A DNA stretch of 64,000 nucleotides from Escherichia coli (lineage in GTDB: Bacteria > Pseudomonadota > Gammaproteobacteria > Enterobacterales > Enterobacteriaceae): the NCBI RefSeq assembly GCF_003790525.1, contig NZ_CP033635.1; one strand, given 5' to 3'. Of the stretch, positions 10,359 to 52,017 are shown piece by piece (position 1 is the stretch's first letter; each line of letters opens with the position of its first letter). The notes under the pieces were generated by a model, which was not told the origin of the DNA, did no database searches, and worked only from the letters and a program-made list of their open reading frames with translations. The position numbers were made by a program, and so were the translations under genes.

Positions 10359-12695
10359 ATGAAGCAAATTCGTCTGCTGGCGCAGTATTATGTTGACCTG
10401 ATGATGAAGTTAGGTCTGGTGCGCTTCTCAATGTTGCTGGCGCTGGCCCTCGTCGTTCTTGCCATTGTGGTACAAATGGCGGTAACCATGGTGCTGCATG
10501 GTCAGGTCGAAAGCATTGATGTTATTCGTTCTATCTTCTTTGGTTTGCTGATTACGCCGTGGGCGGTCTACTTTCTATCGGTGGTCGTCGAGCAACTGGA
10601 GGAGTCACGGCAACGTCTGTCACGACTGGTGCAAAAACTGGAGGAGATGCGCGAGCGCGATTTGAGCCTCAACGTTCAGTTAAAAGATAATATTGCCCAG
10701 CTAAATCAGGAAATCGCCGTTCGTGAAAAAGCGGAAGCAGAACTGCAGGAAACCTTCGGCCAACTGAAAATTGAAATCAAAGAGCGCGAAGAGACACAAA
10801 TTCAGCTCGAGCAGCAATCCTCATTCTTACGTTCCTTCCTTGATGCTTCACCCGACCTGGTTTTTTATCGTAACGAAGATAAAGAGTTTTCCGGCTGTAA
10901 CCGCGCGATGGAGCTGCTGACCGGAAAAAGCGAAAAACAACTGGTTCACCTGAAACCTGCTGATGTTTACTCACCGGAAGCCGCCGCAAAAGTCATTGAA
11001 ACCGATGAAAAAGTGTTCCGTCATAATGTGTCACTGACCTATGAACAGTGGCTGGATTACCCGGACGGGCGCAAAGCCTGCTTTGAAATCCGTAAAGTGC
11101 CGTACTACGACCGCGTGGGTAAACGTCACGGTTTGATGGGCTTTGGTCGCGACATTACCGAGCGTAAGCGGTATCAGGATGCGCTTGAACGGGCCAGCCG
11201 CGACAAAACGACGTTTATCTCCACCATCAGTCACGAATTGCGTACGCCGCTGAATGGTATCGTCGGCCTGAGCCGCATTCTGCTGGATACCGAACTCACC
11301 GCCGAGCAGGAAAAATATCTCAAAACCATCCATGTTTCGGCCGTCACGCTGGGGAATATCTTCAACGATATTATCGACATGGATAAGATGGAACGGCGCA
11401 AGGTCCAGCTTGATAATCAGCCGGTTGATTTCACCAGCTTCCTTGCCGATCTGGAAAATCTCTCCGCCTTGCAGGCGCAACAAAAAGGATTGCGCTTTAA
11501 CCTGGAGCCTACGCTGCCATTACCGCATCAGGTCATTACCGACGGGACGCGTTTACGGCAGATCCTGTGGAACCTCATCAGTAACGCCGTCAAATTCACC
11601 CAGCAAGGCCAGGTTACCGTGCGCGTGCGCTACGATGAAGGCGATATGCTGCATTTTGAAGTGGAAGATTCCGGCATTGGCATTCCGCAGGATGAGCTGG
11701 ATAAAATTTTCGCCATGTATTACCAGGTGAAAGACAGTCATGGCGGTAAACCTGCCACCGGCACCGGTATTGGTCTGGCCGTTTCTCGTCGTCTGGCGAA
11801 AAATATGGGCGGCGATATTACGGTTACCAGCGAACAGGGCAAAGGTTCAACCTTTACGTTGACGATCCACGCACCGTCGGTGGCAGAAGAGGTCGATGAT
11901 GCGTTTGATGAAGACGATATGCCTTTACCGGCGCTGAATGTACTGCTGGTGGAAGACATTGAACTGAACGTGATTGTCGCGCGTTCTGTGCTGGAAAAAT
12001 TAGGTAACAGCGTTGATGTCGCCATGACCGGCAAGGCGGCGCTGGAGATGTTTAAACCGGGCGAATACGACCTGGTATTGCTGGATATTCAGTTGCCAGA
12101 TATGACCGGGCTGGATATCTCTCGTGAACTGACGAAGCGTTATCCGCGCGAGGATTTACCACCGCTGGTGGCCTTAACCGCTAACGTGCTGAAAGACAAA
12201 CAAGAGTACCTCAATGCTGGAATGGATGATGTGCTGAGTAAGCCGCTTTCTGTTCCGGCGCTAACCGCGATGATCAAGAAATTCTGGGATACCCAGGATG
12301 ATGAGGAGAGTACGGTGACGACAGAAGAGAACAGTAAATCAGAAGCATTGCTCGATATTCCCATGCTGGAACAGTATCTCGAACTTGTAGGACCGAAGCT
12401 GATCACCGACGGGTTAGCGGTATTTGAGAAGATGATGCCGGGATATGTTAGCGTGCTGGAGTCGAATCTGACGGCGCAGGATAAAAAAGGCATTGTTGAG
12501 GAAGGACATAAAATTAAAGGTGCGGCGGGGTCAGTGGGGTTACGCCATCTGCAACAGTTGGGTCAGCAAATTCAGTCTCCTGACCTTCCCGCCTGGGAAG
12601 ATAACGTCGGTGAATGGATTGAAGAGATGAAAGAAGAGTGGCGTCACGACGTAGAAGTACTGAAAGCGTGGGTGGCAAAAGCTACTAAAAAATGA
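10359..12695 (+). CDS. arcB: aerobic respiration control sensor histidine kinase ArcB
   Basis: 778-aa ORF with HisKA motif (STISHELRTPLNGI), receiver and HPt domains. Confidence 0.97.
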   Translation: MKQIRLLAQYYVDLMMKLGLVRFSMLLALALVVLAIVVQMAVTMVLHGQVESIDVIRSIFFGLLITPWAVYFLSVVVEQLEESRQRLSRLVQKLEEMRERDLSLNVQLKDNIAQLNQEIAVREKAEAELQETFGQLKIEIKEREETQIQLEQQSSFLRSFLDASPDLVFYRNEDKEFSGCNRAMELLTGKSEKQLVHLKPADVYSPEAAAKVIETDEKVFRHNVSLTYEQWLDYPDGRKACFEIRKVPYYDRVGKRHGLMGFGRDITERKRYQDALERASRDKTTFISTISHELRTPLNGIVGLSRILLDTELTAEQEKYLKTIHVSAVTLGNIFNDIIDMDKMERRKVQLDNQPVDFTSFLADLENLSALQAQQKGLRFNLEPTLPLPHQVITDGTRLRQILWNLISNAVKFTQQGQVTVRVRYDEGDMLHFEVEDSGIGIPQDELDKIFAMYYQVKDSHGGKPATGTGIGLAVSRRLAKNMGGDITVTSEQGKGSTFTLTIHAPSVAEEVDDAFDEDDMPLPALNVLLVEDIELNVIVARSVLEKLGNSVDVAMTGKAALEMFKPGEYDLVLLDIQLPDMTGLDISRELTKRYPREDLPPLVALTANVLKDKQEYLNAGMDDVLSKPLSVPALTAMIKKFWDTQDDEESTVTTEENSKSEALLDIPMLEQYLELVGPKLITDGLAVFEKMMPGYVSVLESNLTAQDKKGIVEEGHKIKGAAGSVGLRHLQQLGQQIQSPDLPAWEDNVGEWIEEMKEEWRHDVEVLKAWVAKATKK

Positions 12696-12807
12696 CCCCG
12701 GCTAGACCGGGGTGCGCGAATACTGCGCCAACACCAGGGAAATCTTGGCTGCGCCGTAAATTATTATGATGAGTTACAAGGGCACAGCACTGTTTTTCAG
12801 GCCGCAC
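12687..12807 (-). ncRNA. arcZ: small RNA ArcZ (RyhA/SraH), 121 nt, overlapping the arcB 3' end
   Basis: Reverse strand reads GTGCGGCCTGAAAAACAGTGCTGTGCCC...CACCCCGGTCTAGCCGGGGTCATTTTTT, matching the ArcZ sequence as I remember it, including its terminator hairpin. Confidence 0.85.
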
Positions 12808-12924
12808 GCAGTTAAGATAGCAAAACTTAAATGATTTGTTACATGAATCAGTTAAATGTGTGATGCGTAGCATTTTTATTAAAAAAATTAATGTGTTTCA
12901 GTCAATTGCGAAAGGATGATCACA

Positions 12925-13578
12925 ATGAAGAAAATTGGCGTAATTCTGAGCGGATGCGGCGTCTATGACGGTTCTGAAATTCATGAAGCGGTGTTGACGT
13001 TGTTAGCTATTTCACGCAGCGGTGCGCAGGCGGTCTGCTTTGCACCGGATAAGCAGCAGGTTGATGTAATCAATCATTTAACTGGCGAAGCGATGCCGGA
13101 AACGCGCAATGTGCTGATTGAAGCGGCACGAATAACGCGTGGTGAGATCCGCCCTCTGGCCCAGGCCGATGCCGCTGAGCTGGATGCGTTGATTGTGCCG
13201 GGGGGGTTTGGTGCGGCGAAGAATTTAAGCAACTTTGCCCGTCTGGGGAGTGAATGCACCGTTGACCGTGAATTAAAGGCGCTGGCACAAGCGATGCATC
13301 AGGCCGGAAAACCGCTTGGTTTTATGTGTATTGCCCCGGCGATGCTGCCGAAAATTTTCGATTTCCCGCTGCGTTTGACCATCGGTACTGATATTGATAC
13401 CGCAGAAGTGCTGGAAGAGATGGGCGCGGAGCATGTGCCGTGTCCTGTCGATGATATCGTGGTTGATGAAGACAATAAGATTGTCACCACCCCTGCATAT
13501 ATGCTGGCGCAGAACATTGCAGAAGCGGCGAGCGGCATTGATAAGCTGGTTTCCCGCGTGCTGGTCCTGGCGGAATGA
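12925..13578 (+). CDS. elbB: DJ-1/PfpI-like protein ElbB
   Basis: [30 protein letters not shown]..., 217 aa. Confidence 0.9.
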
Positions 13579-14303
13579 GTAAAAGCCGCTTAACGGTGTT
13601 TAGTTTCGTTCGCCGTTTTCTTCTGCGGTTAATGGTTGTCCTCGCCGTTTTCTGGGGCGGGGGCATCGCGTTGTTTAGCGTTGCGCCTGTTCCCTTCTCA
13701 GCGGTAATGGTTGAGCGGCAAGTCAGCGCCTGGCTGCATGGCAATTTTCGTTACGTGGCACATTCTGACTGGGTCAGTATGGATCAAATCTCGCCGTGGA
13801 TGGGACTGGCGGTGATTGCCGCAGAAGATCAGAAATTTCCTGAGCACTGGGGCTTTGATGTCGCTTCCATTGAGCAAGCCCTGGCGCACAACGAACGCAA
13901 TGAAAACCGTATTCGCGGTGCGTCAACGATTTCTCAGCAGACAGCCAAAAATCTCTTTTTATGGGATGGGCGCAGCTGGGTTCGAAAAGGGCTGGAAGCC
14001 GGATTAACGCTGGGGATAGAAACGGTCTGGAGCAAAAAGCGTATCCTGACGGTTTACCTGAATATCGCCGAATTTGGCGACGGTGTGTTTGGCGTCGAAG
14101 CTGCGGCACAACGTTATTTCCACAAACCCGCGAGCAAGCTTACCCGGTCGGAAGCTGCATTACTGGCAGCTGTATTACCTAATCCACTTCGTTTCAAAGT
14201 CTCCGCGCCATCGGGCTACGTGCGTAGCCGTCAGGCGTGGATTTTACGGCAGATGTATCAGTTAGGCGGTGAGCCGTTTATGCAACAACACCAGCTTGAT
14301 TAA
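13575..14303 (+). CDS. mtgA: monofunctional peptidoglycan glycosyltransferase
   Basis: 242-aa ORF with transglycosylase motifs ([16 protein letters not shown]); 4-nt overlap with the elbB stop. Confidence 0.93.
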
Positions 14304-34277: not shown

Positions 34278-34396
34278 AATCTCGCGCTAACAACCTGGAA
34301 TCGAGCCGTCATACTACGGCGCAACGCCCTATAAAGTAAACGATGACCCTTCGGGAACTTCAGGGTAAAATGACTATCAAAATGTGAATTGTAGCT

Positions 34397-34431
34397 GACC
34401 TGGGACCTGTACCCGGGTCGGTATTTTTTTT
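34397..34431 (+). terminator. intrinsic terminator/attenuator in the greA leader (GraL-type leader RNA)
   Basis: gaccuggg / cccggguc 8-bp stem with one G-U pair, then 8 T's, about 95 nt upstream of the greA start. Confidence 0.6.
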
Positions 34432-41082: not shown

Positions 41083-41169
41083 GCCGAGGTGGTGGAATTG
41101 GTAGACACGCTACCTTGAGGTGGTAGTGCCCAATAGGGCTTACGGGTTCAAGTCCCGTCCTCGGTACCA
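41083..41169 (+). tRNA. leuU: tRNA-Leu (anticodon GAG), 87 nt with encoded CCA
   Basis: GCCGAGGTGGTGGAATTGGTAGACACGCTACCTTGAGGTGGTAGTG...GGTTCAAGTCCCGTCCTCGGTACCA; long variable arm, cloverleaf foldable by eye. Confidence 0.93.
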
Positions 41170-44951: not shown

Positions 44952-45028
<77 letters not shown>

Positions 45029-45150
45029 CTTTCCCTTAGAGTCCTTTTTCAAATATACTGTGAAGACTTCGGCCTTCGTAGTGGGATTTGAAAAAATCCT
45101 TCTGGAAAGTGCTCCAGACCGCAGTTGCGGTTATAGGGTTCAGTTATATA

Positions 45151-45175
45151 AAGCCCCGATTTATCGGGGTTTTTT
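45151..45175 (+). terminator. hairpin plus T-run between metY and rimP (partial terminator/processing site)
   Basis: aagccccga-ttta-tcggggtt followed by TTTTT; a second weaker hairpin plus T7 lies at about 45199..45217. Confidence 0.6.
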
Positions 45176-45234
45176 GTTATCTGACTACAGAATAACTGGG
45201 CTTTAGGCCCTTTTTTTATGTCTTGGGGGTGGGC

Positions 45235-49899: not shown

Positions 49900-49916
49900 G
49901 GTTTTTAGGGTTCCAT

Positions 49917-49986
49917 GCGGGATAAGGCGTTTACGCCGCATCCGGCATGGATTGCCTGATGCGACGCTGGCGCGTCTTATCAGGCC
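49917..49986. repeat. REP/BIME element (two inverted REP units) in the infB-rbfA spacer
   Basis: gcgggataaggcgtttacgccgcatccggca followed by gcctgatgcgacgctggcgcgtcttatcaggcc, both classic E. coli REP consensus sequences. Confidence 0.85.
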
Positions 49987-51460: not shown

Positions 51461-51826
<366 letters not shown>

Positions 51827-51842: not shown

Positions 51843-51870
51843 AAAAGGGGGCCTGAGTGGCCCCTTTTTT
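51843..51870 (+). terminator. rpsO intrinsic terminator
   Basis: aaaa-ggggcc-tgagt-ggcccc followed by TTTTTT. Confidence 0.8.
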
Positions 51871-51920
51871 CAAGCTGACGGCAGCAATTCACTGGAAACT
51901 AATGTATTGTTGCTATGAAT

Positions 51921-52017
51921 GATCTTCCGTTGCAGAGGTTCGCGCGGCTAATGAGAGGCTTTACCCACATTGGGCTGGGTTAGGGTTGTCATTAGTCGCG
52001 AGGATGCGCAGAAGATC
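51921..52017 (+). promoter_or_regulatory. long imperfect stem in the pnp 5' leader (RNase III autoregulatory processing hairpin)
   Basis: gatcttc (51921..51927) pairs with gaagatc (52011..52017) closing an about 95-nt structured leader; function assigned from knowledge of E. coli pnp. Confidence 0.45.

Follow-up and report, generated by a model that had tools for sequence, protein, structure and literature searches.

The question raised by this locus is how the sensor-kinase gene arcB and the small RNA gene arcZ, which are transcribed towards each other, divide the DNA at their common end: which bases belong to both genes, how far the two RNAs would overlap, and whether the open reading frame lying over the sRNA encodes a protein. 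We addressed it in a 64,000-nt stretch of Escherichia coli DNA (contig NZ_CP033635.1 of assembly GCF_003790525.1), hereafter the window, whose positions are used throughout, and in related loci across Enterobacterales. The features under discussion are collected in Table 1.

Table 1. Features at the arcB-arcZ junction, in window coordinates
Feature	Position	Strand	Basis
arcB, hybrid sensor kinase of the ArcAB system, 778 aa	10359..12695	+	ORF list, Pfam, RefSeq
arcZ (sraH/ryhA) primary transcript, 121 nt	12687..12807	-	Rfam RF00081 and K-12 identity
Conserved ArcZ 3' part, positions 66-121	12687..12742	-	36-nt core match; position computed
Putative arcZ promoter	12808..12842	-	Read by eye relative to the annotated transcription start
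ArcZ intrinsic terminator stem-loop, (A)CCCCGG-UCUAG-CCGGGG(U)	12695..12713	-	Terminator scan, RNA fold, unique palindrome
Shared 9 bp	12687..12695	both	Sequence; K-12 overlap 3350689..3350697
Spurious 62-codon ORF	12685..12873	-	ORF list; not a gene

Identity and extent of arcZ

The minus-strand RNA is almost certainly E. coli ArcZ, the Hfq-dependent sRNA encoded between arcB and elbB and convergent with arcB. The Rfam covariance model RF00081 matches 12700..12807 of the minus strand over its complete length (model positions 1-106 of 106) with 120.8 bits and an E-value of 4e-27, the gathering score being 66 bits, and the whole 121-nt transcript aligns base for base, at 100% identity, with arcZ of K-12 (b4450, 3350577..3350697; arcB, b3210, occupies 3350689..3353025 in the same genome). 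The initial annotation had called the RNA as ArcZ convergent with arcB, proposing a search for the ArcZ family in Rfam and a comparison with an annotated arcZ as checks; both comparisons bear the call out, as they do its coordinates (the arcB stop at 12693..12695 and ArcZ at 12687-12807). Its remark that the arrangement is known for E. coli is likewise correct, as seen from the K-12 annotation and the literature: the overlap of ArcZ and arcB is an already described phenomenon and textbook E. coli biology. The RNA starts with the G at 12807; the K-12 annotation ends it at 12687, whereas Term-seq ends it at 12688, the fifth U and K-12 position 3350696 (Adams et al., 2021, supplementary file 1).

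The neighborhood shows the synteny described for ArcZ (PMC11331407): arcB on the plus strand, arcZ on the minus strand, and elbB on the plus strand from 12925. The product of the first of these carries the name ArcB in RefSeq and shows, in order, the Pfam domains HKR_ArcB_TM, PAS, HisKA, HATPase_c, Response_reg and Hpt, six of six being above their cut-offs. The locus agrees with that of K-12 ArcZ (SraH/RyhA, b4450, RF00081) in the 121-nt sequence, position, orientation, terminator and the 9-nt overlap with the arcB coding sequence; there is no difference inside the RNA, and the differences are confined to the flanks, where two substitutions are found, one in the promoter region and one, synonymous, in arcB codon 775. 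The segment 12400..13000 is 100% identical to E. coli SMS-3-5, and of 5426 complete E. coli genomes 5416 carry the arcZ locus at an identity of at least 95%. In RefSeq, arcZ is left unannotated for the matching strain SMS-3-5; it should be added in records like this one, where automated annotation omits it.

Within the RNA, a 36-nt core (12707..12742) that is identical to K-12 also recurs without a mismatch in at least 120 species of Enterobacterales. The conserved 3' part that begins with this core appears to correspond to the active form of about 56 nt described for ArcZ (PMC11331407), which is produced by RNase E, bound by Hfq and contains the seed for target pairing. A putative promoter can be read by eye upstream of the RNA, with a -35 element GTAACA (12842..12837), a 17-bp spacer and an extended -10 element TGcTATCTT (12822..12814); a consensus promoter scan returned no sigma-70 site for arcZ, the by-eye promoter scoring 8/12, below its threshold. 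An ArcA box in this promoter was considered and set aside, because a genome-wide ArcA ChIP study has no ArcA site upstream of arcZ (PMC3798270).

The terminator and the base pairs shared with arcB

The 3' end of ArcZ reads ACCCCGG-UCUAG-CCGGGG-UCA-UUUUUU. A terminator scan gave a single candidate here, confined to the minus strand, with its stem at 12713..12695 and the tail CAUUUUUU; the GC-rich hairpin itself occupies 12696..12712 and is followed by UCAUUUUUU, with an optional closing A-U pair formed by 12713 and 12695. The hairpin is clear and stable in an RNA fold, and the window contains the palindrome CCCCGG-N5-CCGGGG a single time, as against none in 100 shuffles. Minus-strand transcription starting at 12807 ends at this intrinsic terminator.

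The nine shared base pairs read on the plus strand as AAA AAA TGA, i.e. Lys777, Lys778 and the arcB stop, and on the minus strand as UCA UUUUUU, i.e. the spacer and U-tail with which ArcZ terminates. The stop codon is complementary to UCA (12695..12693), and the last two lysine codons to the U6 (12692..12687). Thus, the template for the ArcZ spacer and U-tail is the arcB stop together with these two codons, so that the same 9 bp serve two genes at once. The initial annotation had put the stop codon inside the terminator stem and U-tail. Its location at the terminator stands, but the finer placement needs amendment: on the minus strand its complement UCA is a spacer between the stem (12696..12712) and the U6 (12687..12692), and at most the A at 12695 enters the stem, as part of the closing A-U pair.

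As to the length of the overlap between ArcZ and the arcB coding sequence, the K-12 annotation gives 9 nt, Term-seq gives 8 nt, and a 2024 review that describes the Rho-independent terminator gives 'ten bases' (PMC11331407). The Rfam match by itself ends at 12700, 5 nt short of arcB, and the model covers neither the U-tail nor the 3' arm of the stem; hence, the overlap rests on the K-12 annotation and Term-seq rather than on the Rfam match. The figure of 9 nt in the initial annotation accordingly holds for the annotated genes, the overlap in K-12 being the same. It had, however, been given as the complementarity between the 3' ends of the sRNA and of the arcB mRNA, and this does not follow, since the 9 nt are an overlap between ArcZ and the arcB coding sequence and the plus strand has neither a U-run nor a terminator at this point.

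On the plus strand the stem is followed by UGCGCGAAUACUG, which contains no U-run, and the scan found no plus-strand terminator-like site before 14065; the first such match, at 14065, lies inside mtgA and is no better than chance. Judged by its sequence, then, the hairpin is a one-way terminator. As there is no U-run and no terminator on its strand, the arcB mRNA is not expected to end at the stop codon and would extend into arcZ, where its predicted 3' UTR would be perfectly complementary to ArcZ. The predicted overlap of the two transcripts would be about 27 nt if the arcB mRNA were shortened as far as the hairpin and as much as 121 nt if transcription read through towards elbB. Pairing of ArcZ with the arcB 3' UTR and with 6 nt of coding sequence upstream of the stop has been described (PMC4281340).

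An alternative is that the hairpin terminates both transcripts, as a bidirectional intrinsic terminator, in which case the RNAs would overlap by only about 9-27 nt, comprising the hairpin and tail, an outcome implied by the initial annotation. The perfect palindrome can form on both strands, an A-run precedes it on the plus strand, and E. coli convergent gene pairs often share terminators, at least as the work of Ju et al. (2019) is cited in PMC7815308. The bidirectional terminators of that work, as cited there, resemble the present case in having a palindromic GC-rich hairpin between convergent units and an A-run, which is here one-sided; they differ in that the U-run here follows the hairpin on the ArcZ strand only, making it one-way by sequence, in line with the restriction of the scan match to the minus strand. 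Moreover, the plus-strand sequence downstream of the hairpin is the complement of the invariant ArcZ core, which leaves no U-run in any of the sampled species among the matches listed. The Term-seq tables (supplements of Adams et al., 2021) give a 3' end for ArcZ and a Rho region in antisense, but no arcB 3' end, which also speaks against termination of arcB at the hairpin. A literature search returned nothing specific to this locus, either on termination in both directions or on co-transcription of arcB with elbB. We consider a shared terminator improbable.

From the literature, the primary 121-nt ArcZ would be cut by RNase E to yield the 3' fragment of about 56 nt, which together with Hfq would pair in trans with rpoS, flhDC and other mRNAs; ArcZ is described as activating translation of rpoS and repressing other targets. 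ArcA-P is described as repressing arcZ, against which stands the ArcA ChIP result given above; further, ArcZ would lower the arcB mRNA and the arcB mRNA would lower ArcZ, giving a mutual-inhibition loop. ArcZ has been presented as a cis 3'-end antisense RNA in mutual negative regulation with arcB (PMC4152358), and mutual repression of the two RNAs has been reported elsewhere (PMC10948607; PMC11331407), with one review calling the arcB-on-ArcZ direction speculative (PMC11331407). In the cis effect, ArcZ would probably base-pair to the stop region and 3' UTR of the arcB mRNA, with degradation as the consequence.

The mutual repression might instead be due mainly to RNA polymerases that collide as they converge on the shared region, and less to RNA-RNA pairing. 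The two genes face each other and overlap, no plus-strand terminator intervenes before arcB transcription crosses arcZ and its promoter, and published BCM data show minus-strand transcription that extends about 760 nt into arcB, antisense to the gene, before Rho terminates it (Adams et al., 2021, supplementary file 2). Secondary sources, on the other hand, state that ArcZ destabilizes the arcB mRNA and acts as an antisense RNA (PMC4152358; PMC4281340). Polymerase collision as the main cause thus seems to us rather unlikely, though less so than a shared terminator. Antisense pairing with decay and interference between convergent polymerases could both contribute, as they are not mutually exclusive, and the sequence cannot separate the two.

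Precedents for the antisense geometry are presented by GadY/gadX and McaS/abgR, where, as with ArcZ, the sRNA lies opposite the 3' end or 3' UTR of its neighbor and is perfectly complementary to it (PMC4281340). The reported outcomes differ: GadY stabilizes its target and McaS is without effect on abgR, whereas ArcZ destabilizes the arcB mRNA (PMC4281340). ArcZ is further distinguished from RNAs of the GadY/McaS type in that it is known mainly for functions in trans (on rpoS, flhDC and others) and in that the overlap takes in part of the coding sequence.

The reading frame across arcZ

A minus-strand frame of 62 codons lies over arcZ, which the initial annotation described as covering exactly the sRNA while advising that it should not be called as a protein. 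The extent is not exact: the frame opens at an ATG in the promoter region, 66 nt before the first base of ArcZ, and the last two bases of its TAG stop (12687..12685) fall past the 3' end of the RNA. Consequently, ArcZ contains neither the start codon of the ORF nor a complete stop. The advice itself is sound. Among the matches listed, the 62-aa ORF with its ATG was recovered in only 2 of the 117 loci with complete flanks, both from E. coli; an in-frame ATG is absent in 94 of these 117, and in other genera the stops fall at varying positions. Even close relatives depart from it, with E. albertii retaining a 40-codon GTG remnant and E. whittamii no start at all, and the sole peptide common to the loci is the translation of the fixed search pattern. 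A Pfam search with the ORF gave no match, a collection of some 15 billion proteins contains none of three E. coli variants of it, and the ORF is annotated neither in the RefSeq record of the matching SMS-3-5 genome nor in that of K-12.

These observations bear directly on whether the ORF might be a real small protein, or ArcZ a dual-function RNA with an in-frame 40-codon GUG ORF starting from +1. Dual-function sRNAs do exist, SgrS/SgrT being an example that lends the reading a precedent, and in E. coli the frame runs for 70 codons without a stop. Against it stand the ATG in the promoter, the incomplete stop in the ArcZ transcript, the restriction of the intact ATG ORF to E. coli and the empty Pfam, protein-collection and RefSeq searches: what would mark a dual-function sRNA, a start and a stop inside the transcript that are conserved in relatives, is not found here. 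We give a coding role practically no credence. The 62-aa ORF is hence ruled out as a gene by its start and stop outside the transcript, its non-conservation and the lack of Pfam or database matches, and it must not be called in annotation.

Conservation of the junction across Enterobacterales

For the comparison we took one genome per species with an exact match to the 36-nt ArcZ core, giving at least 120 loci, among the matches listed, from Escherichia, Salmonella, Citrobacter, Enterobacter, Kosakonia, Cedecea, Yersinia, Rahnella, Erwinia, Pantoea, Mixta and other genera, again among the matches listed. In every locus among the 120 matches listed TCA or TTA comes next after the stem, with 5-9 T behind it, in a sample that is biased by its selection on the core, as it holds exact-core loci only and the 5' arm of the terminator was fixed by the search pattern, which leaves no room for covariation between the two arms. 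The arcB stop was called as the triplet that is the in-frame stop of the ORF best matching the ArcB C-terminus; so defined, it is TGA or TAA and directly abuts the ArcZ stem in 96 of the 120 species among the matches listed. The arrangement of arcB stop and ArcZ terminator is thus conserved across Enterobacterales.

In those 96 species ArcB always ends in Lys-Lys, and every one of the 192 codons concerned is AAA, as against a share of 68% for AAA among lysine codons elsewhere in the 3' part of arcB; the naive probability of such a pattern, 2e-33, ignores shared ancestry and is not to be taken literally. ArcB residues -3 and -5, by comparison, vary freely across the 96 species, and the Pfam Hpt match ends at residue 760, leaving the KK tail outside the Hpt domain. 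The invariance of AAA AAA, the variability at -3 and -5 and the location of the tail beyond Hpt together lead us to infer that the AAA AAA end of ArcB is held by selection on the ArcZ U-tail, in its roles in termination and Hfq binding, rather than by selection on the protein.

In the remaining species, about 24 of the 120 among the matches listed, the arcB stop is shifted by +6 to +68 nt or the frame reads through the hairpin, with one outlier (locus L014) where the stop lies at +207 and the ArcB-like match is weak. Displacement is concentrated in Pantoea, Mixta, Pluralibacter and Chimaeribacter, and is also seen in Ca. Erwinia dacicola, Serratia sp. M24T3 and Enterobacter sichuanensis. It apparently stems from a one-base change of length in a homopolymer run, and some of the cases may be assembly errors. 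These species nevertheless retain the UCA or UUA spacer and the U-run; since the spacer is kept where the stop is displaced, the stop codon is not what maintains it. A review describes the overlap as usual but not universal (PMC11331407), and the displaced stops fit this description.

These patterns can be extended to a tentative proposal, to which we give a low to modest probability: the last 9 bp of arcB would be governed by ArcZ, changes of homopolymer length would repeatedly have re-set the C-terminus of ArcB (in about 20% of species), and a ribosome terminating at the foot of the hairpin could gate the access of ArcZ to the arcB 3' end, thereby coupling translation of arcB to its ArcZ-mediated decay. 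The selective cause and the coupling are both speculation.

The locus is thus a compact and already studied case of one stretch of DNA used by two convergent genes. To it the codon bias and the stop positions are a newly added comparative result, in itself a minor footnote, that suggests, in quantitative terms, how an sRNA terminator could fix the C-terminal codons of a protein. In the wider physiology of the organism, it is through the mutual-inhibition loop between ArcZ and arcB that the ArcAB redox sensor would be linked to the RpoS stress response.

Annotation and occurrence of the arcB-arcZ-elbB junction

In the K-12 record arcZ is annotated as the ncRNA b4450; the RefSeq annotation of E. 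coli SMS-3-5 (NC_010498.1), the strain matching the window, has no arcZ feature in the arcB-elbB interval, as checked for window 12687..12807 (-). At ≥95% identity, the junction matches 5418 places in complete E. coli genomes. One of these places is plasmid-borne, and in at least one genome the junction is present twice; 10 of the 5426 genomes searched at this threshold have no match.

Among the listed matches to the exact 36-nt ArcZ core, one genome per species, the triplet adjoining the ArcZ terminator stem does not serve as the arcB stop in about 24 of 120 species (loci L014, L016, L022, L024, L026, L031, L033, L041, L045, L047, L050, L055, L068, L072, L073, L090, L091, L100, L102, L105, L108, L110, L111 and L113). 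The displaced stops lie 6-68 nt beyond that triplet, apart from a displacement of 207 nt in L014, which has a weak ArcB-like match; in L016, L072, L091 and L108 the arcB frame continues through the hairpin. All of these species nevertheless retain the TCA/TTA spacer and T-run. One-base changes in the homopolymer run are probably the cause, and some cases may stem from sequencing errors.

Further RNA elements in the window

RNA family matches above threshold in an Rfam search
Element	Position	Strand
greA leader	34308..34429	+
tRNA	41083..41166	+
tRNA	44952..45025	+
rimP leader	45117..45217	+
naRNA4	49916..49986	+
S15 leader	51499..51613	+
SraG	51843..52014	-

Transcription on both strands around arcZ

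Reviews assert that ArcA-P binds the arcZ promoter (PMC11331407); in contrast, a genome-wide ArcA ChIP study has no ArcA site upstream of arcZ (PMC3798270). A consensus scan of window 12808..12925 found no sigma-70 promoter. On the ArcZ strand, bicyclomycin data place a strong Rho-dependent termination region at window ~11923 (-), equivalent to K-12 3351461 (+), i.e. ~760 nt beyond the ArcZ 3' end, within and antisense to arcB; the drug raises the reads downstream from 20 to 418 (Rho score 15.2; Adams 2021, supplementary file 2). Such a bicyclomycin-responsive antisense region suggests that transcription either passes through the ArcZ terminator or starts from an antisense promoter within arcB.

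On the opposite (+) strand, a terminator scan of the window detected no terminator-like site from 12696, the first base after arcB, to 14065, the first being a weak match (14065..14080) inside mtgA. Since arcB, elbB and mtgA also share one orientation, it is possible, judging from the sequence, that arcB transcription runs on into elbB-mtgA.
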